From a virus (lineage: Duplodnaviria; Heunggongvirae; Uroviricota; Caudoviricetes): 20,031 bases of DNA. Positions 2,961 to 15,179 of the stretch are shown one piece after another (the stretch's first letter is position 1; every line of letters begins with the position of its first letter). The stretch lies in IMG/VR virus record IMGVR_UViG_2541047753_000005, one strand, 5' to 3'. The position numbers and the translations under genes were made by a program. The notes under the pieces are model-generated. The model was not told the DNA's origin. It worked only from the letters and a program-made list of their open reading frames with translations, and searched no databases.

Positions 2961-3794
2961 ATGAACATCGAAAAAAGCAGATTAATTTCTGAGGCCGCCC
3001 CTCATCTGAACGCCTCTCTGGGCACAATTAACGGTAATGAATTTGCCGCAATTGTCCCAGTTATTCCTGGTCACATCGGTGGGCGTGAAACCAATATTGT
3101 TAGCGCAAAAGCGTTACACAAAGCGTTGGGCGTGGGAAAAGACTTCTCTACATGGATCACTGATCGCATCTCTGAATATGACTTCACCATTGGGCACGAT
3201 TACTCAGTCCATAAAACAATTTCCCCAAATTTGGGGAAAAGCCCGAATGGCGCGGCTTACAGCAAGATTAAGCAGTCTGGCAGACCCGGCAAAGACTATC
3301 TGTTAAGTGTCGGAATGGCGAAAGAACTGGCAATGATCGAACGCAATGATCAGGGTCGCGCTATCCGTCGTTATTTCATCCAGTGCGAGGAAGAATTACA
3401 GCGTAGCGTGCCTGAAATCGCCGCCCGCTATCGTCGCCAGCTAAAAGCCCGTATCAGTGCCGCAAACAACTTTAAGCCAATGTGCGATGCGCTGAATATG
3501 GCCCGTGCCGAGCAGGGGAAAACGACGCAGCAACACCACTACACAAACGAGAGCAATATGATTTCTCGTATCGTTCTTGGAGGGCTAACTGCTAAGCAGT
3601 GGGCGCGGATAAATGGCTATTCTGGCGAACCTCGCGACCATATGAACGCAGAACAGCTTGAGCACCTCTCATATCTCGAAAGCACCAATATCACGTTAAT
3701 TGATATGGGCATGGAATATGAGCAGCGCAAAGGAGAACTCACCCGCCTGTCGCAACGCTGGCTCGCCAAGCGTCTGGAGGCGGTCCATGTTTAA
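2961..3794 (+). CDS. phage antirepressor-like protein (AntA-like N-terminal domain plus KilAC-like C-terminal domain)
   Basis: 277-aa ORF with GGAGA Shine-Dalgarno. N-terminal segment SAKALHKALGVGKDFSTWITDRISEYDF resembles AntA/Rha-type antirepressor domains; KDYLLSVGMAKELAMIERNDQGRAIRRYFIQCEEEL resembles KilAC domains. Assignment from memory. Confidence 0.65.
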   Translation: MNIEKSRLISEAAPHLNASLGTINGNEFAAIVPVIPGHIGGRETNIVSAKALHKALGVGKDFSTWITDRISEYDFTIGHDYSVHKTISPNLGKSPNGAAYSKIKQSGRPGKDYLLSVGMAKELAMIERNDQGRAIRRYFIQCEEELQRSVPEIAARYRRQLKARISAANNFKPMCDALNMARAEQGKTTQQHHYTNESNMISRIVLGGLTAKQWARINGYSGEPRDHMNAEQLEHLSYLESTNITLIDMGMEYEQRKGELTRLSQRWLAKRLEAVHV

Positions 3795-3969
3795 GCCGAC
3801 AGGAACACCACAACCTCAAAAACGCTACAAAGATGCCCACGGAGCACTCGTTACTGTCGAAAGCGTGTCTCACAACCGAGTGACGTTTTATCGCGACGGG
3901 TATCAATCGCCATGCGTACAACCGCTGGCGCGCTTCATGAAGGAGTTCGCGGAGGTTAACAAATGCTAA
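3787..3969 (+). CDS. small hypothetical protein (60 aa)
   Basis: ATG at 3787 is preceded by GGAGG at about 6 nt and overlaps the antirepressor stop (ATGTTTAA); its own stop overlaps the next ATG (ATGCTAA). Confidence 0.55.
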   Translation: MFKPTGTPQPQKRYKDAHGALVTVESVSHNRVTFYRDGYQSPCVQPLARFMKEFAEVNKC

Positions 3970-5030
3970 CCGTCCAGAAGAAGATATTTTCACTGGCTGG
4001 TATGTCGCCAAAATCCAGCAATATAACAGCAAAGTCTGGCATTAATACAGCAGATACAAGCAAAGTTTATCATTTTCTGGTGGTAGGAGCGGATGCCTTA
4101 ACTATGTCAGAAATTACGGTCGATAGTGTTAGCGTTGAGAAGGTCGGCGGCTGCGCCAGAGAATTTCTGGTCGTAGATGGCTTTCTCTGCTCGCGTAGTG
4201 ACTCCACAAAAACCTTCGTCCACACGCGCGACGTTAACGAAATGAGCGCGATGTATTGTGCATCTGGTGCTTCCAATAGTGAGTTTTCGGAGTCCATAAA
4301 AAAGAGCTTGCCGTTATGCGGCAACACGGTTTATGGTTATAAGGCACCTCATAAAACGGGTGCCGGGATTGGCGTCCTGGTAAATCGAATGGCGACATAT
4401 GACGCGCCGAGCGTCTTTTTTTATGTCGTAGGTCTGACTCACCCATTTTTTGGGCGTTGGTGTATAATCCAGCGCCTTTGTCAATCAATGGTGGCTCAGG
4501 CAGGGGCTTCTTCGGAAGCGCCGGTATCCATTCGAGCCGGTTACGCCAACCCTGTCTGGGCTACCACCAGCGAAATTGGCGTTTCCGGTGGTAGCGTTAC
4601 ATGCTATCGAATGGAGGCTGCCACATGCTGGCTACTACCCCTACCCAAAAACCGCAATTTATCTGGATTATCGCCGCAGTTCGCCGCGATTGCCCGACAA
4701 TTACCGCCAAAATTCATCATATTGCTGCCGAGTCTGAACGCGATGCTCGCCGTTCTCTGGTGCGCGATCACGTCTGCTTTTTTGCTGGTCGTATCCGCAT
4801 GGAGGTGGCACATGATTAAAACCTACGATGTGCATATGGATCCCCTCGAACGCACAAGCCAGATCATCACACTGACAGAAGTGATTAACGACATTCTGGT
4901 GAGCAACTCTCCCTCACGAGACGAAAGACTGAAGGCGTTACTCGCGATATTGGATCTCGCCGTTCGTGACGTTCATTTCCTGCTGGAAGGTGGCGAAATG
5001 CCAGGAAAAACGGGGGCAACCAATGAATAA
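3963..5030 (+). CDS. hypothetical protein; extent uncertain (may be a shorter 5' gene plus untranslated leader plus a separate 72-aa gene at 4813..5030)
   Basis: ATG at 3963 has GGAGG about 7 nt upstream and is coupled to the preceding gene, so a real gene starts here. A 355-codon open frame is very unlikely by chance at this base composition. However the central part is compositionally odd, contains an extended -10 (TGTATAAT, 4461-4468) and stable hairpins, and the in-frame ATG at 4813 has its own strong GGAGGTGG Shine-Dalgarno. Confidence 0.35.
4461..4468 (+). promoter_or_regulatory. candidate extended -10 promoter element (TGTATAAT) ahead of the small-gene/primase operon
   Basis: Perfect TGnTATAAT at 4461-4468 with no convincing -35; preceded by a short GC hairpin plus T7 run (4401-4422). 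Position is analogous to the early promoter driving the primase operon in P4-type elements. Confidence 0.35.
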
Positions 5031-6642: not shown

Positions 6643-7006
6643 AAATGCAGAAATGGCGCTTAGCTCCGCAATCGGAGAGCAGGTGGCAAAGATTGCTGGC
6701 GCTGTGTGGATTCATAACCTTCATTCTACTAGTGAAGAGAAAATGGCAATTCAGACGCCAGAGGGACGCACCATTACTACATCTCTGAAGCCGTCAGATG
6801 TTTGTGATCTGATTTGCGCATTCATGTACCCAGCAATGAGGACTGTCCACGGCGATAAGTGGAAACTTGCGACAACCGCTGAATTTGATATGTGGCTAAA
6901 CAATGATGGCATGCTGACTGATTACGGAATAACCAAGTGGCAGATGCTGGTTAGCCATATCGCAAACGCTATAGACCACGTGGGGTACGGTGATGCGAAA
7001 CATTGA
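6635..7006 (+). CDS. hypothetical protein (123 aa)
   Basis: GGGAGG 5 nt upstream of ATG; 3' end overlaps the primase start. Confidence 0.65.
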   Translation: MRENAEMALSSAIGEQVAKIAGAVWIHNLHSTSEEKMAIQTPEGRTITTSLKPSDVCDLICAFMYPAMRTVHGDKWKLATTAEFDMWLNNDGMLTDYGITKWQMLVSHIANAIDHVGYGDAKH

Positions 7007-9749
7007 TCTTATCCGTCAGGTTATCAGTGCGTCTGAAAACAACTGGCCTCATGTGCTGGGCTGCCTGAACATAAATGTCCCTGACTCTCCGCGCCGTCAT
7101 GCTCCCTGCCCTGCATGTGGGGGCAAAGATCGATTCCGGTTCGATGACAACGGGCGCGGTAGCTTCATCTGTAATCAGTGCGGCGCTGGTGATGGGCTGG
7201 ATTTAATTAAACGCGTAAATAACTGCGACACAACAGAGGCGGCGCTTCTTGCCGCTGATGTTCTGGGTATTGATTACCGGACAACGGAAACACCAGAAGC
7301 CACCAGCCAGAAACGGGAACAACTGGAAACCGAGCGCCAGCGACGCGAACAGGAGCGCCTGAAAAGGGCAGAGAAGGACGAACAACAAAGACGGGATACG
7401 TTTTCCCGTCAGTTTGATGACATGCGCAGAAAGGCTGTAAACGGCAAATCTGATTATCTGGTTGCGAAAGGGGTAGGTGATTTTACATTCCCCGTGTTGC
7501 CCGATGGATCTCTGTTGCTGGCGCTGGTGGATAAATCCGGCGCAGTAACAGCAGCACAGACTATTACCTCACATGGTGAAAAAAGACTCCTGATAGGTTC
7601 AGCAAAGCGGGGGGCATATCACGCCATAAACGCACCAGAAACAACACAGAGCATCTTAATCGCAGAAGGGCTGGCAACGGCATTATCTGCCCATTTAATG
7701 CGTCCAGAGGCGCTGACAGTGGCGGCGATTGATGCCGGGAACCTGTTATATGTCGCCCAGGTACTGCGGGATAAATTTCCTTCAGCACAAATCATCATTG
7801 CTGCGGATAACGACCACAGCGAAGGAAGACAAAACACGGGGAGAATAGCAGCAGAAAAAGCAGCTTTATCTGTTTCTGGATGGGTGGCATTACCCCCGAC
7901 AGATCACAAAGCAGACTGGAATGATTACCACCAAAAACACGGCATTAAATGCGCCACAGAAGCGTTCAATAAGTCAATGTACCAACCACAGGGTAATGGC
8001 GTGAAACAGGAGCCACAAACCATTGAGGGAAGCGATTTTAAGGTTATGGATACCGACCCACTGAAACCAAGAATAGAAAGCCGCGAGGATGGCATTTATT
8101 GGGTATCTCCGAGAGCTGACAGCCAGAGTGGAGAAATCATCAATAACGAAAGCTGGTTATGTTCTCCGTTAAGCGTTATCGGTACTGGCAGAGACGATAA
8201 AGACCAGTATCTCATTCTTCGCTGGCTGTCGTTTGGTTCTGAAACGCCGACAACCGCTGCCATTCCACTGGCTGATATTGGTGAACGTGAAGGATGGCGC
8301 ACACTTAAAGCTGGTGGGGTAAATGTCACGACCAAAAACAGCCTCAGAGCAATACTGGCAGACTGGCTACAACGCAGTGGCTCTCGTGAATTGTGGCGTG
8401 TTGCTCATGCCACTGGCTGGCAATGCGGAGCGTACATCATGCCTGATGGGGAAATCATCGGAACACCTGAAAATCCTGTGCTGTTCAGCGGGAGAAGCTC
8501 AGCCGCAGCCGGATATACCGTCTCAGGGAGCGCGAAAAGCTGGCGTGATAACGTGGCGCGTCTGGCCTTTGGTAACTATTCAATGATGACCGGGATCGGC
8601 GCAGCACTGGCAGCGCCATTGATTGGGCTGGTGGGCGCTGACGGGTTCGGCATTCATTTCTATGAGCAGTCGAGCGCAGGTAAGACCACCACGGCAAACG
8701 TGGCGAGCAGCTTATACGGCAACCCTGATTTACTGCGGCTGACGTGGTACGGAACCGCGCTGGGGCTGGCAAATGAAGCCGCCGCCCACAATGACGGACT
8801 AATGCCGCTTGATGAAGTTGGTCAGGGCGCTGATCCTGTCAGTATTTCACAGTCTGCCTATGCGTTATTTAACGGTGTAGGGAAACTGCAAGGCGCTAAA
8901 GATGGTGGAAACCGGGATCTAAAACGCTGGCGTACAGTGGCAATCAGCACCGGAGAAATGGATTTAGAAACATTTATCGCTACTTCCGGGCGAAAAACCA
9001 AAGCCGGGCAACTGGTGCGACTGCTGAATATTCCGTTGAGTAAAGCAGTACGCTTTCACGATTACCAGAACGGAAAACAGCACGCAGACGCACTGAAAGA
9101 CGCTTACCAGCATCACCACGGCGCAGCCGGGCGTGAGTGGATTAAATGGCTGGCAGACCACCAGCAACAGGCAATTAAAACTGTTCGTGACTGCGAAAGC
9201 AGATGGAGAAGTCTGATCCCATCCGATTATGGTGAGCAGGTTCACCGTGTAGCCGCGCGATTTGCCATTCTGGAGGCCGCATTGCTGTTAGGCGAGGTTG
9301 TAACAGGCTGGGATGCTCAGACATGCCGTGATGCGATACAGCACAGCTATAACGCATGGTTGCGCGAGTTCGGCACAGGTAACAAAGAACATCAGCAGAT
9401 TATTGAACAAACGGAGGCATTTCTTAATGCCTATGGGCTTAGCCGTTTTGCACCATTTCCATACAGCCCGGCAGATTTGCCCATCAAAGATTTAGCCGGA
9501 TACCGTCAGCGTGGAGAACATGACGAAAGCCCAATGATTTTCTACACATTCCCGGCCACATTTGAAAAGGAGATCGCATGTGGTTTCAACGCAAAACAGT
9601 TTGCTGAAGTGTTGAAAAAAGCCGGGATGCTAACCCCACCAAACAGCGGTCGTGGATACCAAAGAAAATCACCACGTATTCAGGGACGACAAATAAACGT
9701 TTATGTACTCAATTACCAGCCAGGAGATTACAACTCATCTGAAGAATGA
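6993..9749 (+). CDS. replicative primase-helicase (P4 alpha-like: zinc ribbon, Toprim primase, P-loop NTPase domain)
   Basis: 918 aa from ATG 6993 (ORF-track start 6990 is a GTG). N-terminal zinc ribbon CPACGG...CNQCG; Toprim-like acidic motifs (LIAEG, AADNDH); Walker A-like EQSSAGKTTT and Walker B-like LMPLDEVG. An iteron array follows 26 bp after the stop. Confidence 0.85.
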   Translation: MRNIDLIRQVISASENNWPHVLGCLNINVPDSPRRHAPCPACGGKDRFRFDDNGRGSFICNQCGAGDGLDLIKRVNNCDTTEAALLAADVLGIDYRTTETPEATSQKREQLETERQRREQERLKRAEKDEQQRRDTFSRQFDDMRRKAVNGKSDYLVAKGVGDFTFPVLPDGSLLLALVDKSGAVTAAQTITSHGEKRLLIGSAKRGAYHAINAPETTQSILIAEGLATALSAHLMRPEALTVAAIDAGNLLYVAQVLRDKFPSAQIIIAADNDHSEGRQNTGRIAAEKAALSVSGWVALPPTDHKADWNDYHQKHGIKCATEAFNKSMYQPQGNGVKQEPQTIEGSDFKVMDTDPLKPRIESREDGIYWVSPRADSQSGEIINNESWLCSPLSVIGTGRDDKDQYLILRWLSFGSETPTTAAIPLADIGEREGWRTLKAGGVNVTTKNSLRAILADWLQRSGSRELWRVAHATGWQCGAYIMPDGEIIGTPENPVLFSGRSSAAAGYTVSGSAKSWRDNVARLAFGNYSMMTGIGAALAAPLIGLVGADGFGIHFYEQSSAGKTTTANVASSLYGNPDLLRLTWYGTALGLANEAAAHNDGLMPLDEVGQGADPVSISQSAYALFNGVGKLQGAKDGGNRDLKRWRTVAISTGEMDLETFIATSGRKTKAGQLVRLLNIPLSKAVRFHDYQNGKQHADALKDAYQHHHGAAGREWIKWLADHQQQAIKTVRDCESRWRSLIPSDYGEQVHRVAARFAILEAALLLGEVVTGWDAQTCRDAIQHSYNAWLREFGTGNKEHQQIIEQTEAFLNAYGLSRFAPFPYSPADLPIKDLAGYRQRGEHDESPMIFYTFPATFEKEIACGFNAKQFAEVLKKAGMLTPPNSGRGYQRKSPRIQGRQINVYVLNYQPGDYNSSEE

Positions 9750-10520: not shown

Positions 10521-10982
10521 ATGGAACTAAAATTTATTGATAACCCTGTGCGATTACAGGCCTTTCTCAACGAGCCTGGCAATACCGAAAATATTGTTGA
10601 GCCGGGGCACACGTACTACATCAAGCCTGATGCGGTATATCTCGGTATCTACGAAGGATTGGTGCTGGCTGGCGTTCATGAAGTGCGTAACTTCTGGCAT
10701 AGCATTGTTGAATGCCATGCGGTGTACGACCCCGGATTCCGTGGTGAATATGCACTGCAAGGGCATCGATTATTCTGCAAATGGCTTCTCGAAAACTCAC
10801 CATTCCTTAACAGCATTACCATGGTTCCTGACACAACGAAATACGGACGGGCAATTATCCGTTTGCTTGGCGCTACCCGTGTTGGTCACCTTGATGATGC
10901 TTATATCAGATGTGGTAAACCCGTCGGCGTAACGCTTTATCAGTTAACTCGGCAACAATATAAGGAATTCAGCGAATGTTAA
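10521..10982 (+). CDS. hypothetical protein at the position of gene 14 in P22-type ejection-gene blocks
   Basis: 153-aa ORF; stop overlaps the start of the next gene. Assignment by position only. Confidence 0.6.
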   Translation: MELKFIDNPVRLQAFLNEPGNTENIVEPGHTYYIKPDAVYLGIYEGLVLAGVHEVRNFWHSIVECHAVYDPGFRGEYALQGHRLFCKWLLENSPFLNSITMVPDTTKYGRAIIRLLGATRVGHLDDAYIRCGKPVGVTLYQLTRQQYKEFSEC

Positions 10983-11653
10983 TTACCCATATAGCTCATA
11001 AACATCTCAATCGTGCCGTATACGAAAAAGGCGGTGATGGTGGTGCCTCTAAAGCTCAGGCGAAGGCCCAGCAGCAGGCAATTGATTTGCAGCGCGAGCA
11101 GTGGAATACGGTGATGAATAATCTCAAGCCGTATGCAGAAGTCGGATTGCCTGCTTTACAACAACTACAAGGACTGATGACTCTGGAAGGGCAGAATAAA
11201 GCCGCGAATGATTTCTTTGGTTCTGGTTTATATAAAACACAGGCAGATCAGGCCCGTTATCAGAACCTTGTCTCAGCAGAAGCTACCGGGGGGCTTGGCT
11301 CAACAGCTACCAGTAACCAGTTATCTTCCATTGCGCCCATGCTTTATAACAATTGGCTTAGTGGGCAAATGCAAAATTATGGAAACCTGCTAAATGTCGG
11401 GATGAATGCGGCATCAGGGCAGGCAACAGCAGGGCAAAACTACGCCAATAATACCGGACAACTCTTGCAGGGGCTTGGCGCTATTCGTGCAGGTCAGGCG
11501 CAGCAGCCATCCAGTCTTGCGCGTGGTATTGGTGGGGCGGCATCAGGCGCTTTAGCGGGTGCGCAACTTGGTTCCGTTGTTCCGGGTATAGGTAATGTCG
11601 CCGGGGCTATTGGTGGTGGGCTTATTGGTCTTGTTGGGGGGCTTGGATTCTAA
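10976..11653 (+). CDS. putative podovirus ejection (DNA-transfer) protein, P22 gp7-like
   Basis: 225 aa (P22 gp7 is about 229 aa as I recall). Gln/Ala/Gly-rich low-complexity protein with a Gly-zipper hydrophobic C-terminus (GALAGAQLGSVVPGIGNVAGAIGGGLIGLVGGLGF). Start overlaps the upstream stop. Homology inferred from size, order and composition, not from a search. Confidence 0.5.
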   Translation: MLITHIAHKHLNRAVYEKGGDGGASKAQAKAQQQAIDLQREQWNTVMNNLKPYAEVGLPALQQLQGLMTLEGQNKAANDFFGSGLYKTQADQARYQNLVSAEATGGLGSTATSNQLSSIAPMLYNNWLSGQMQNYGNLLNVGMNAASGQATAGQNYANNTGQLLQGLGAIRAGQAQQPSSLARGIGGAASGALAGAQLGSVVPGIGNVAGAIGGGLIGLVGGLGF

Positions 11654-13074
11654 TGGCGACATGGCAACTTGGCGGGCTGCCTAGCATGGTACCGCAAAAT
11701 GATAATGCTCCTCGTTCTTCCGTTCCTCAGCCTGTGCAGTTTCAGCAGCAGCCAAACGTAGGTTTAATGGCGCTACAGGGGCTAAGAGGCGTTGCTGAGA
11801 TTAATCAGCAGGCACGTCAACAACAGCGTAAAGCAGAGTTTCAGAAAGCATATGCCGGGGCTTTTGAGTCTGGAGACAGAAACAAAATGCGCAGTCTTAT
11901 TTCTGAGTATCCAGAAGAATTTGAAAGCGTTCAGAAAGGGATGGGCTTTATTGATGACGACCAGAGAAATTCTATTGGTCATCTTGCGACTAGTGCTCAA
12001 ATCGCATCTTCGCTCGGAACTGGGGCATTTGGAAAATTCATAGCAGATAACGAAGATGAAATGCGTCGCTTGGGAATTTCTCCTGAGTCTGTTGCCGAAA
12101 TGCATGTTAATGATCCACAGGAATTCCAGCGGCTTGCTGGTAGTATGGCACTGTTTTCTCTCGGTCATGAGAAGTACTTCGATATCAAAGATCGAATGGA
12201 AGGTCGGGATATTGAGCGTGGCAAGTTGGCAGAGACAATCCGCAGCAATCAGGCTGGAGAGGCGCTTCAGGCGAGAGGGCAGGATATTAGCCGAGCAAAT
12301 GCGTTAACGTCAGCATATGCACCAACAGCCGCAATGCAGAATTACAATCAGTACGCGCAAATGTTAAAGGCGGATCCAGAGGGGGCAGCGGCATTTGCGG
12401 CAGCGGCTGGAATTAATACAAACGCCAAAAAATTAATGAGTGTTAGGGAAAACGATGATGGCACTGTCACAAAATACTACACAGACGGAAGTGAAGAGCA
12501 GGGAAAACTAAACCAGCCAATATCTGGAGATGGGTTTCGTCCAATAGCTTTGCCAACAGCCCAAAAGATCATGGAAAAGTCGCCAGAAGGGGCTAAAAAA
12601 GCTGCTGGATTTGCATACAGAGTTAGGGATGCTCTTGATTCAATGGATACACTGAAAGGCCAGCTTAGCCCACAGCGAGTGGCGATCATTAATAATGCTT
12701 TGGGTAATGGGACGCTGGCTAACTTAACGCTCAGCCCAACAGAGCAGCAATACGTTGTTAATGCTAATGACGCAATAATGGCAATACTCCGTCAGGAAAC
12801 AGGGGCAGCTATCGTACCTGCTGAAATGTCAAAATATTATCAAATGTATTTCCCTCAGCCTGGCGACTCCACAAAAACCATTGATACCAAGCGCCGGAAG
12901 ATGGAAAACCAGTTCAATTCGCTGAAAGCTGCTTCTGGTCGAGCTTATGATGCTTTGCGTGTTATTTCAGCAGTTGACAGAGGAACTTCTTCTTCGTCGC
13001 AGACATTGCCGCAATCTGAGCAGGTATCACAGCCAGCAGCCAGCAGTAATTTTTCTTCACTATGGGGTGATTAA
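11653..13074 (+). CDS. putative podovirus ejection (DNA-transfer) protein, P22 gp20-like
   Basis: 473 aa (P22 gp20 is about 471 aa as I recall); TAATG stop/start overlap with the preceding gene; Gln-rich N-terminus. Confidence 0.5.
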   Translation: MATWQLGGLPSMVPQNDNAPRSSVPQPVQFQQQPNVGLMALQGLRGVAEINQQARQQQRKAEFQKAYAGAFESGDRNKMRSLISEYPEEFESVQKGMGFIDDDQRNSIGHLATSAQIASSLGTGAFGKFIADNEDEMRRLGISPESVAEMHVNDPQEFQRLAGSMALFSLGHEKYFDIKDRMEGRDIERGKLAETIRSNQAGEALQARGQDISRANALTSAYAPTAAMQNYNQYAQMLKADPEGAAAFAAAAGINTNAKKLMSVRENDDGTVTKYYTDGSEEQGKLNQPISGDGFRPIALPTAQKIMEKSPEGAKKAAGFAYRVRDALDSMDTLKGQLSPQRVAIINNALGNGTLANLTLSPTEQQYVVNANDAIMAILRQETGAAIVPAEMSKYYQMYFPQPGDSTKTIDTKRRKMENQFNSLKAASGRAYDALRVISAVDRGTSSSSQTLPQSEQVSQPAASSNFSSLWGD

Positions 13075-15179
13075 TGGCTAAAGCATGGAAAGATGTTATC
13101 GCCTCTCCACAGTATCAGGCGTTAGCACCAGAACAAAAAGTGCAGGCTCAGGAGCAATACTTCAATGAAGTCGTGGCCCCGCAAGCCGGAGAAAGTGTAG
13201 AGCAGGCTAAGCAGGCTTTTTATGCTGCCTATCCACTACCATCTACGAATGAAATAGACCGCTCCCAATCAGCAACTCAAAATATTCAACATACATCATC
13301 TGATAATTCTCTTGCGTCAGGGTATGCAAAGTTAGCTACTCAGCAAAGAGAGGGGCTTGAGCGTTCAGCAGAACAGGGAGCCAGTCTTGGGACTGCGATG
13401 CGCGATGCTATAACAGGCGAAAGCCGAATGACTCCAGAGATGGAGAGACTGCAAAATGTCGCCTCTGCCCCAGAATTGAACTCACTAAGCATGGATGCCC
13501 TGAAGGCTGGATGGTCTCAACTTTTCGGCTCTGACGCGTCTCAGGAAAAGATTCTTCAGGGCATGGGGGCGACATTAAGGCAGGATGAGAAGGGGAATAC
13601 TATCGTTTCTCTGCCATCAGGTGATTATGCCCTGAACAAGCCGGGTTTATCACCGCAAGACCTGACTTCGTTTCTGGCTAATGCGCTGGCGTTTACACCA
13701 GCGGGCAGGGCTGGAACGGTGCTTGGTGCCATAGGAAAATCAGCAGCTACAGATTTAGCACTACAGGGAGCCACCAGCAAGGCTGGTGGAGAAGATATTG
13801 ATCCGTTACAAACGGTAATTTCTGCTGGCATTGGTGGTATTGGTAAGGGGCTGGAAAATACAGCGAGTGCGGTTTCGAGGGCTGTTCGTGGTGATATGTC
13901 GCCTGAAGCAAAGGCTGCTGTCGACTTTGCATCGGAAAGAAATCTGCCGTTAATGACCAGTGACATGCTGAAAGATAAAACCTTTATGCAGAGTCAGGCT
14001 CAGACATTAGGCAAAAGAGTTCCTTTTTTTGGAACCGGTAAGAATCGGCTGAATCAACAACAAGCACGAGAAAATTTAGTCAGAACATTTAGCGATGGTC
14101 TGGGTGGCATTTCTGATAAACAGCTTTATGAATCTGCGACTAAAGGGCAACAAAAATTCATTGAGGCAGCAGGAAAGCGATATAACCGCATAATTGACGC
14201 TATGGGGGATACCCCTGTCGATCTCTCAAACACGGTAAAAACTATCGACAATCAGATTGCCGTGTTAAGCCGCCCTGGCAAATCTCAGGATAGAGCCGCG
14301 GTAAAAGTCTTGCAGCAATTTAAAGACGATATCACCAGCGGACCAAATGACCTGCGTCTGGCGAGGGAAAACAGAACCGATCTTCGAAAGCGATTTATAG
14401 CGTCATCTGACACTGTTGATAAAGATACGCTCCAGAAAGCCAGCGATATTATCTACAAGGCATATACGGCGGATATGAAAAAAGCCGTAGCCAAAAATCT
14501 TGGAGCAGACGAAGCCATTAATATGGCAAGGGTTGATCGCTCATGGTCTAAATTCAATGACATGATGGGAAGAACGCGCGTTCAAAAGGCAATAGCCAGC
14601 GGCAAGGCCACGCCTGAGGATGTAACAAAACTCGTTTTTAGCCAAAGCCCATCAGAACGTTCTCAGCTTTACAGGCTTCTGGATGACAATGGTAGGCAAA
14701 ACGCACGAGCAGCTATAGTTCAGAATGCTGTAGATAAGGCGACTGATCCGTCTGGAAATATCAGTGTTGAGAAGTTTATTAATGCGTTACACCGGAACAG
14801 GAAGCAATCAGCAACTTTCTTTAAAGGCGTACATGGAAAGGAACTGGACGGCGTTATTAAATACCTCAACGATACAAGACACGCGGCAAAAGCGAACGTT
14901 CAAAACTTAAATGGTCAGCAGCTTTATGGATTGTTAGTTGGTGGTGGCATCATAAACGCAGCAGTATTGGCGGGGATGCTAAAAACGGCTGCGTTTGTTG
15001 TTCCTGCTGCTGGTGCCGTAGGCGGAGCAGCGAAGGCATACGAAAGCCCTGTTATACGAAATGCCTTGTTACGTCTGGCAAATACGCCAAAAGGTAGCAC
15101 AGCATATGACAGAGCGATCAGTACGGTCACACAATCGCTCACCAGAGTCGCACAGGCATCACAAAAAGAAGCTCAATAA
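13074..15179 (+). CDS. putative podovirus ejection (DNA-transfer) protein, P22 gp16-like
   Basis: 701 aa; TAATG overlap with the preceding gene; low-complexity Ala/Gln/Gly-rich protein with a hydrophobic Gly/Ala-rich segment near the C-terminus (LYGLLVGGGIINAAVLAGMLKTAAFVVPAAGAVGGAAKA). Third and largest gene of the block, as in P22. Confidence 0.5.
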   Translation: MAKAWKDVIASPQYQALAPEQKVQAQEQYFNEVVAPQAGESVEQAKQAFYAAYPLPSTNEIDRSQSATQNIQHTSSDNSLASGYAKLATQQREGLERSAEQGASLGTAMRDAITGESRMTPEMERLQNVASAPELNSLSMDALKAGWSQLFGSDASQEKILQGMGATLRQDEKGNTIVSLPSGDYALNKPGLSPQDLTSFLANALAFTPAGRAGTVLGAIGKSAATDLALQGATSKAGGEDIDPLQTVISAGIGGIGKGLENTASAVSRAVRGDMSPEAKAAVDFASERNLPLMTSDMLKDKTFMQSQAQTLGKRVPFFGTGKNRLNQQQARENLVRTFSDGLGGISDKQLYESATKGQQKFIEAAGKRYNRIIDAMGDTPVDLSNTVKTIDNQIAVLSRPGKSQDRAAVKVLQQFKDDITSGPNDLRLARENRTDLRKRFIASSDTVDKDTLQKASDIIYKAYTADMKKAVAKNLGADEAINMARVDRSWSKFNDMMGRTRVQKAIASGKATPEDVTKLVFSQSPSERSQLYRLLDDNGRQNARAAIVQNAVDKATDPSGNISVEKFINALHRNRKQSATFFKGVHGKELDGVIKYLNDTRHAAKANVQNLNGQQLYGLLVGGGIINAAVLAGMLKTAAFVVPAAGAVGGAAKAYESPVIRNALLRLANTPKGSTAYDRAISTVTQSLTRVAQASQKEAQ

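Follow-up and report, generated by a model that had tools for sequence, protein, structure and literature searches.

The locus and its setting

The window analysed here, a stretch of 20,031 nucleotides in the Caudoviricetes record IMGVR_UViG_2541047753_000005, is identical to the E. coli D8 sequence adjoining yicC. It carries int, alpA and a Toprim-DUF927 primase gene, and the integrase and primase ORFs are full length. P22-like ejection genes follow downstream in the window, no tRNA or tmRNA is present in it, and no match to sid, psu or delta was found among the ORFs scanned, which are a part of the window's ORFs in an island that may extend further. A scan with Rfam at gathering thresholds gave three RNAs, namely isrK (4344-4421), C4 (4484-4571) and the int-alpA RNA (1269-1335). 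At the DNA level, the region around the first two is homologous to the P4 cI region as well as to the immunity regions of SfV and other phages. All leader features described below are on the + strand.

These RNA genes lie within a 355-codon open frame (3963..5030) that an earlier note on this DNA, made from the letters alone, had correctly reported. Its start overlaps the stop of a DUF4222 gene (3787-3969), and RefSeq annotates it in E. coli D8 as an “ash family protein” (WP_024188156.1). Four parts make up this frame. It opens with an N-terminal extension of low conservation (3963-4268), continues as an eta-like frame across a putative promoter and the two RNA genes, then overlaps a small icd-like gene out of frame, and takes in a 72-aa gene last.

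The icd-like gene (4625..4819) encodes an Icd/Kil-like protein of 64 aa (NCBIfam NF033153 phage_ICD_like, E 3.7e-20), with the match for 4625-4816 scoring 71.7 bits against a cut-off of 25 and the product being 39% identical to P4 Kil. It has the Shine-Dalgarno sequence GGAGG at 4613-4617 and is the first translated gene of the leader, unannotated in E. coli D8 but annotated separately in close relatives. Its entropy by codon position is 0.59/0.55/1.10, so that the third position varies twice as much as positions 1 and 2. The 72-aa gene (4812..5030) overlaps the icd stop with its start (ATGATTAA) and is annotated as a separate hypothetical protein in relatives; its product has no match in Pfam, NCBIfam or PHROGs. 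The in-frame ATG with a strong Shine-Dalgarno that had been placed at 4813 is this start, which occupies 4812-4814 and is preceded by GGAGGTGG (4801-4808). Close relatives are annotated otherwise than E. coli D8 over the same stretch. For annotation this is of practical value, as RefSeq misses the two RNA genes, the Icd-like gene and the 72-aa gene in the E. coli D8 genome.

Comparative set

Starting from an alignment of Icd/Kil proteins, 80 loci were recovered from Enterobacterales genomes. Of 85 sources, 83 gave covariance-model matches to both the C4-like and the isrK-like RNA, with order and spacing unchanged; in 83 of the 85 the C4-like RNA precedes the icd-like ATG, as picked by script, by 46-57 nt (mostly 52-54). 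Base pairs were counted in an alignment of 82 sequences from 82 homologous loci, with 500 shuffles and slid registers as pairing controls. These comparisons establish that both RNAs belong to their families, which structures they have, that all the contacts co-vary and that the promoter motif and the open frame are conserved.

The putative promoter and the isrK/seqA-type RNA

A putative PLE-like promoter is located at 4308..4337, with the -35 element TTGCCG (4308-4313), an 18-nt spacer and the -10 element TATGGT (4332-4337), and its predicted transcription start is at about 4344. At 8 of 12 consensus bases, TTGCCG-N18-TATGGT falls below the threshold of a simple promoter scan. Even so, 69 distinct homologues, P4 among them, have the conserved motif GGCTTGC-N18-TAnnGT-N6 directly ahead of isrK position 1, and the P4 sequence with which it aligns is, by its position, probably PLE.

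The RNA that begins there is an isrK or P4 seqA-type leader RNA (4344..4421; full-length match to Rfam RF01394, 67.1 bits with a gathering score of 50). It has the two 5′ hairpins and the intrinsic terminator of this family: hairpin 1 at 4344-4363, hairpin 2 at 4364-4379 with the site a1 (TTGGCGT, 4369-4375) in its loop, a linker with the site b1 (TCGAATGG, 4385-4392), and the terminator t1, whose hairpin GACGC-GCCGA-GCGTC (4401-4415) is followed by seven T (4416-4422). Across the 82 sequences, the isrK helices are 87-99.5% paired. The short GC hairpin and T7 run seen earlier at 4401-4422 is thus present as the isrK terminator. In the sequence-based terminator scan t1 is the sole recognisable terminator, with none identified downstream of icd. 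In the literature, IsrK has been equated with the P4 SeqA RNA and C4 with the P4 CI RNA (PMC3632133, PMC4825925), and the isrK and C4 Rfam models also match PICI-type satellites (PMC10111431).

The spacer between t1 and C4 holds a further hairpin (hairpin S, 4453..4476; MFE -15.8 kcal/mol, z -4.6) with the stem GGCGTTGG/CCAGCGCC and the 8-nt loop TGTATAAT (4461-4468). Its stem is 87% paired across homologues, and seven of its eight pairs have changed on both sides. The loop had been read as a perfect extended -10. This does not hold, as the extended -10 consensus is TGnTATAAT and here the TG abuts TATAAT directly; there is no -35 element at 16-18 bp, the simple promoter scan gave no promoter at TGTATAAT, and the octamer forms the loop of the conserved hairpin S. 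Only the window's subgroup of homologues has TATAAT-like loops in this hairpin, and these leave room for a second promoter.

The C4-type RNA and its antisense contacts

The C4/CI-type antisense RNA gene (4484..4571) matches Rfam RF01695 over positions 1-87 of 87 with 79.5 bits against a gathering score of 45, and its MFE fold is the family consensus (z -5.8). A closing stem of 17 bp (4489-4505/4550-4566) encloses hairpin 1 (4506-4519) and hairpin 2 (4520-4541). Hairpin 1, GCTTC-TTCG-GAAGC, is the UUCG tetraloop hairpin that had already been noticed. Hairpin 2 carries in its loop the site b′ (TCCATTCGA, 4527-4535), and a second site, a′ (ACGCCAA, 4543-4549), lies in the junction, while the 3′ arm ends in c′ (GCTACCACC, 4560-4568), which consists of the end of the closing stem and a CC tail. 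The three C4 helices are 99.8-100% paired in the 82 sequences, with 14 of 27 pairs changed on both sides. The shape resembles that of an RNase P substrate, with an acceptor-like stem followed by ACCACCA, and both CI and C4 are RNase P substrates (PMC5499578).

Downstream of C4 follows a seqC-type target region (4576..4617). It holds a2 (TTGGCGT, 4576-4582), the complement of a′; an element termed c2; a hairpin termed T; and b2 (TCGAATGGA, 4607-4615), the complement of b′, which overlaps the Shine-Dalgarno sequence GGAGG of the icd-like gene (4613-4617). A complementarity search of C4 against its flanks shows that each of the two C4 sites has two partners in the window: b′ (4527-4535) pairs with b1 (4385-4392) and b2 (4607-4615), and a′ (4543-4549) with a1 (4369-4375) and a2 (4576-4582). 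The exact complements are 7 and 9 bp long downstream and 7 and 8 bp upstream. They lie in two repeats that had gone unnoticed before, ATTGGCGT at 4368 and 4575 and ATCGAATGG at 4384 and 4606, both complementary to segments of C4.

These contacts are maintained across the family. In the 82 sequences, a′-a2 is 100% and b′-b2 97.4% paired, and upstream a1-a′ is 99.8% and b1-b′ 99.4% paired with 13 of 15 pairs changed on both sides. Together, the three downstream contacts a′-a2, b′-b2 and c′-c2 have 18 of 25 pairs changed on both sides. At least eight variants each of a′ and b′ exist, with the targets following every one of them. The slid controls for the a and b contacts are 35-51% paired, and none of the 500 shuffles reached the observed score. 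The co-variation analysis across homologues that the earlier note had proposed thus comes out in favour of the a and b contacts, which co-vary and are 97-100% paired. The antisense contacts are those of a′/b′ with a1/b1 and a2/b2, rather than those among three 9-mers that the note had singled out. Its general idea of a P4-like device, in which a small RNA pairs with upstream and downstream sites, is borne out in kind by the Rfam C4 and isrK matches, the homology to P4 cI and the co-variation at 82 loci; most of the parts, the pairing sites included, were misassigned.

In predicted folds, a CUCC flanking a2 pairs with the GGAG of the Shine-Dalgarno sequence; both sides are near-invariant, so no co-variation signal is possible for this pairing. 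MFE folding and cofolding of the leader with C4 RNA gave no information on loop-loop contacts, which were therefore assessed by comparative counts.

Between E. coli islands, 24-52% of the sites in the immunity segment 4344-4624 vary, compared with 1-3% in its flanks (97-99% identity), except for 13% in the N-terminal extension. Such high variation between near-identical flanks is expected for a swappable immunity-specificity cassette, and cassette swapping between near-identical islands fits a diversification of immunity types among satellites and prophages. The comparative set also represents a natural experiment on antisense specificity, as each of the at least eight variants of a′ and b′ is matched at two target copies.

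The three 9-mers, c′/c2 and hairpin T

The three supposedly mutually complementary 9-mers are c′ (GCTACCACC), c2 (GGTGGTAGC, 4587-4595), which is its exact reverse complement and lies between a2 and b2, and GCTACTACC (4631-4639). With up to one mismatch, GGTGGTAGC occurs eight times in the window against 2.7 expected, and three of the eight lie within 80 nt here. The first pair stands up to comparison: c′-c2 is 98.6% paired in the 82 sequences and five of its nine pairs have changed on both sides, with the variants ACCACC/GGTGGT, ATCGCC/GGCGAT (in P4), ACCGCC/GGCGGT and ATCACC/GGTGAT. The complement is also found in P4 and in a P1-like phage. The second pair does not: the second and third 9-mers are 84.7% paired against 85.2% in shuffles, with one double change, and in P4 the third element is unable to pair with the second. 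The third 9-mer forms codons 3-5 of the icd-like gene (Ala-Thr-Thr).

The bases of c2 are shared with hairpin T (4590-4595/4603-4608), which forms in 50 of 54 distinct sequences with a mean z of -2.5. As c2 forms this hairpin with bases 5′ of b2, it has two mutually exclusive partners. It is conceivable, but on balance doubtful, that c′/c2 is a conserved, co-varying third element of the device and that the alternative between c′/c2 and hairpin T constitutes a cis switch along the chain C4 5′ arm, c′, c2 and T 3′ arm. If so, the switch could act in cis to determine if mature antisense RNA arises from a read-through transcript, and also whether a2 and b2 are presented. Pairing of c′ with c2 would hide the ACCA-like 3′ end used by RNase P and could in this way affect C4 maturation. 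By contrast, one C4 RNA sitting on a2, c2 and b2 at once in trans was judged sterically unlikely, considering a 4-nt linker against a helix of about 17 bp. No description of the c′/c2 element was found in the literature searched, the original P4 and P1 papers being outside that search, and the element may be already known. The co-varying c′/c2 element and its competition with hairpin T may be the sole new point of this analysis.

The long open frame

From isrK to the icd ATG, the frame of the long ORF contains five stops in total and is stop-free in 78 of 81 distinct sequences. The second frame has 344 stops and the third 202 over the same stretch, and neither is stop-free in any of the 81. 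The lengths of the spacer are nearly all congruent modulo 3 (62, 68, 107, 98, 65 and 50 nt). The openness of the frame is not due to chance. At the same time, isrK, the spacer, C4 and the target all have flat entropy by codon position, with no third-position excess upstream of icd. A frame that is open in 78 of 81 sequences without a third-position signature implies that the open frame is maintained while its amino-acid sequence is unconstrained. In P4, translation of eta prevents termination of transcripts from the upstream promoter (PMC10111431), and by this analogy an open frame without protein constraint supports a role of translation itself, rather than of the product, as the regulatory signal.

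At most loci the frame begins with GACGCATGATG, which overlaps the stop of alpA 75 nt before isrK, and it closes with the stop of icd/kil, exactly like the 199-codon eta of P4. About 70 of 83 loci have icd nested in frame in this manner, whereas the window has its icd-like gene out of frame with the long ORF and lacks the P4-type nesting. A 2-nt difference at the icd start, shared by the window and nine relatives, uncouples the frames, so that the long frame runs on into the 72-aa gene.

The N-terminal third of the ORF appears to be debris left by recombination. A search of its 123 aa against 5.8 billion proteins found close relatives only, with products of 68-216 aa, so that the segment does not qualify as a conserved domain. 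Its codon signal is weak (15/7/17), and 4111-4217 is antisense to a fragment of a phage small-terminase gene. The product of 355 aa as a whole is not conserved among relatives. Within it, Pfam PF10554 (Phage_ASH) matches above gathering with 105 bits (E 3e-30), but only over aa 124-232, corresponding to nt 4332-4658. Since this segment coincides with the RNA genes and their targets and lacks protein-type substitutions, the match says little about protein function. The suggestion that much of the ORF is leader rather than protein poses a false alternative. The 355-aa product is unconserved and the icd-like and 72-aa genes are separate genes, but the frame is kept open with no protein-type substitutions, as would be expected if ribosomes translate it on transcripts from upstream in the manner of P4 eta.

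Proposed model of regulation

The region is very probably the immunity and early-leader module of a P4/P1-type element, located in an integrase-AlpA-primase island adjoining yicC. The module consists of a small antisense RNA, its target in two copies and a small toxin-like gene, and the locus is a typical member of the known P4/P1 family of RNA-based regulatory regions. Nothing in this overall picture would be unexpected to a P4 or P1 specialist.

RNA processing, the block of translation, termination and translation of the long frame can be sketched by analogy with work on P4 and P1. A weak constitutive promoter, predicted at 4308-4337, would start transcripts at about 4344, the majority of which would end at t1 and yield a 78-nt IsrK/SeqA-type RNA. 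Read-through transcripts would carry the 88-nt C4/CI-type RNA, which resembles an acceptor-stem minihelix with an ACCA-like 3′ end and would be excised by RNase P and 3′ trimming, as for P1 C4 and P4 CI. The mature C4 RNA would expose b′ in the loop of hairpin 2 and a′ in the junction, and these could pair in trans with a2 and b2 on nascent leaders. As b2 covers the Shine-Dalgarno sequence of the icd/kil-like gene, the gene would remain untranslated, and the untranslated leader RNA would be expected to terminate ahead of the replication genes, which include the primase gene (6990-9749) and lie downstream of the icd-like gene. Within the IsrK segment, a1 and b1 may likewise be bound by a′ and b′. 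In P4, pairing with sites of the a1/b1 type raises termination at t1, and the RNA is thereby autoregulated. Transcripts coming from further upstream (alpA through DUF4222) would be translated across the region in the long open frame, which should make them insensitive to the antisense RNA, as with P4 eta.

Several observations are counted against this model. The icd-like gene lies outside the eta frame, so the nesting of P4 eta and kil is not exactly reproduced, and the homologous IsrK of Gifsy-1 activates downstream translation, leaving the direction of control by the isrK segment uncertain. The debris-like N-terminal third of the ORF, the scope for a second promoter in the loop of hairpin S and the lack of a terminator recognised downstream of icd also count against it.

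Alternative explanations

The Gifsy-1 precedent leads to another reading of the same parts, in which a read-through mRNA with a sequestered ribosome-binding site is remodelled in trans by the short IsrK, so that the gene behind it is switched on; on this view the module would chiefly be an activating circuit and not an immunity repressor. This mechanism has been described (PMC4825925), and it would be in line with the isrK family match, with the predicted pairing, in the free target region, of UUUCC just 3′ of a2 with the Shine-Dalgarno GGAGG, and with the two exclusive partners of c2, which suggest alternative conformations of the leader. It is nonetheless unlikely, as a1/b1 are identical, not complementary, to a2/b2, which means that IsrK can pair with C4 and not directly with the target, and as the genes downstream are an icd/kil-like gene and then a replication operon as in P4, with no antirepressor. 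IsrK could, on the other hand, be a decoy for C4, which would make activation compatible with the immunity model. The possibility that the region is a decaying remnant in a defective island, with regulation lost, is considerably weaker and appears highly unlikely. The antisense terminase fragment in the N-terminal part of the ORF and the uncoupled eta and icd frames would suit decay, as would the relative L005, which lacks the isrK-C4 region and in which a truncated terminase pseudogene ends about 90 nt upstream of icd. Against this, the pairings in the window are all perfect (7, 8-9 and 9 bp), the RNA folds match the consensus, the promoter motif, the Shine-Dalgarno sequence and the icd ORF are intact, and the integrase and primase are full length.

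In the version of the earlier note, TGTATAAT would be the promoter, the 9-mers would pair as 1/2 or 2/3 to control termination, and the frame before 4812 would be non-coding. The exact and co-varying complementarity of 9-mers 1 and 2 speaks for this version, and so does the second, exclusive hairpin in which 9-mer 2 takes part. Pairing of 9-mers 2 and 3, however, stays at the level of shuffles and cannot form in P4, 9-mer 3 is conserved as icd codons, TGTATAAT is a hairpin loop without a -35 element that is unconserved outside its subgroup, the frame is open in nearly all homologues, and the icd-like gene lies inside the supposed leader. In this form the proposal is even less probable than a decaying remnant. 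Least probable of all is that the 355-aa ORF encodes a genuine protein of the Ash family whose sequence is important, with the RNA-like motifs being incidental. The RefSeq annotation, the PF10554 match and the conserved openness of the frame would agree with a protein, but PF10554 covers exactly the two RNA genes and their targets, and variation there obeys the rules of base pairing and not of codons, as entropy is flat where icd has a two-fold third-position excess. In addition, the 355-aa form is unconserved, with predicted products of 68 to 216 aa in relatives, and the ORF crosses the recognised icd-like gene out of frame.

Comparison with known systems

The same isrK-C4 pair is found in P4, a P1-like phage and SfV. 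The region has its parts in the order known from P4, which is a promoter (putative here), an isrK/seqA RNA with its terminator, a C4/CI RNA, a target overlapping a Shine-Dalgarno sequence and an Icd/Kil-like gene. Likewise shared are the two-block complementarity to upstream and downstream sites, the open frame through the RNA genes with its start coupled to an upstream gene, and the c′/c2 complement, which in P4 is GCTATCGCC/GGCGATAGC. The specificity of the two systems differs, with a′/b′ being ACGCCAA/CCATTCGA here and UUCUCAC/CCUGUGAA in P4, and the spacer between t1 and C4 measures 62 nt here against 107 nt in P4. In contrast to P4, the long ORF does not share its frame with the icd-like gene and continues into the gene that follows; its start comes after AntA/AntB and DUF4222 genes, 381 nt ahead of isrK, and not 75 nt ahead of it at the alpA stop. 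The window's scanned ORFs also lack the sid, psu and delta genes, and P22-like ejection genes are located downstream here.

The immI region of P1 and P7 (c4 - icd - ant) has an RNA of the same family with an Icd-like gene directly downstream, and there too the partners of a′/b′ are a1/b1 upstream and a2/b2 around the ribosome-binding site of icd. The P1-like phage RCS47 has an identical isrK-C4-a2-c2-b2-icd layout. The P1 operon, however, ends in the antirepressor gene ant, whereas small ORFs and then the primase gene follow here, and the host element is an integrated island and not a plasmid prophage.

In Salmonella, the Gifsy-1 IsrK is reported to activate translation of an antirepressor-like gene and to trigger AntQ-mediated toxicity (PMC4825925). 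The Gifsy-1 arrangement IsrK - orf45 - anrP - isrJ resembles the present one in its homologous IsrK, the read-through isoform and the processed stable RNA STnc1160 downstream (PMC4825925). It differs in what follows, as an icd-like gene and replication functions lie downstream here, which is a better fit to the repressor logic of P4.

Apparent exchange and loss of the immunity region

The segment that carries isrK (the P4 seqA-type RNA), the antisense RNA C4 and its downstream target sites (window 4344-4624) has 24-52% variable sites when the window is compared with the related E. coli loci L003, L004 and L006. The flanking genes of the same islands have 1-3% variable sites, the N-terminal extension has 13%, and the Icd-like protein is identical between the islands despite the divergence of the isrK-C4-target segment. 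Immunity specificity appears to be swapped as a cassette between E. coli islands. In another relative, L005 (E. coli GENOMIC22-004; 1112-2795), neither isrK nor C4 was found. Here the Icd-like gene is preceded by a truncated terminase gpA pseudogene, whose end lies about 90 nt upstream of it, so this locus appears to have lost the immunity module.

The long ORF and its annotation

RefSeq annotation differs among near-identical islands (window 3963-5030; L003 1843-2420; L004 1564-2381). In the window this stretch is given as a single 355-aa "ash family protein" and the Icd-like gene is not annotated; the relatives L003 and L004 have an "ash" pseudogene together with the Icd-like gene, and the 72-aa gene is also annotated in L003. 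The annotation of these three islands includes no RNA genes.

The long ORF looks like recombination debris in its N-terminal third, because window 4111-4217 shares about 86% identity with the antisense strand of a small-terminase ("DNA-packaging protein") gene from a phage, and because a terminator-like hairpin followed by a T run lies on the minus strand (4324-4308), where it overlaps the -35 element of the conserved promoter. Further downstream, CGACATA (4393-4399) and TATGTCG (4422-4428) stand on either side of the hairpin and U run of t1, the intrinsic terminator of isrK. If the two paired in read-through transcripts, the t1 hairpin could become part of a longer helix; GGCGACA and GTCG are kept across the alignment of homologous loci.

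Relation to known phages and satellites

The P1-like phage RCS47 has the same layout as the immunity region of the window, with an isrK-like RNA, C4, the sites a2, c2 and b2, and icd following in this order (L087 1518-1790). It also has the complementarity between c', the end of the C4 3' arm, and c2 (GCTACCGC / GCGGTAGC).

An int-alpA RNA (Rfam RF02996; 1269-1335, plus strand, 60.6 bits) lies directly 3' of the integrase gene (1-1260). Downstream of the primase, P22-type phage genes occupy the plus strand (10521-15179) and encode DUF2824, the gp7 ejection protein, the gp20 injectosome translocase and a gp16-like DNA transfer protein. PICI satellites have a "late zone" (PMC10111431), which these P22-type late genes in an int-alpA-primase island resemble.
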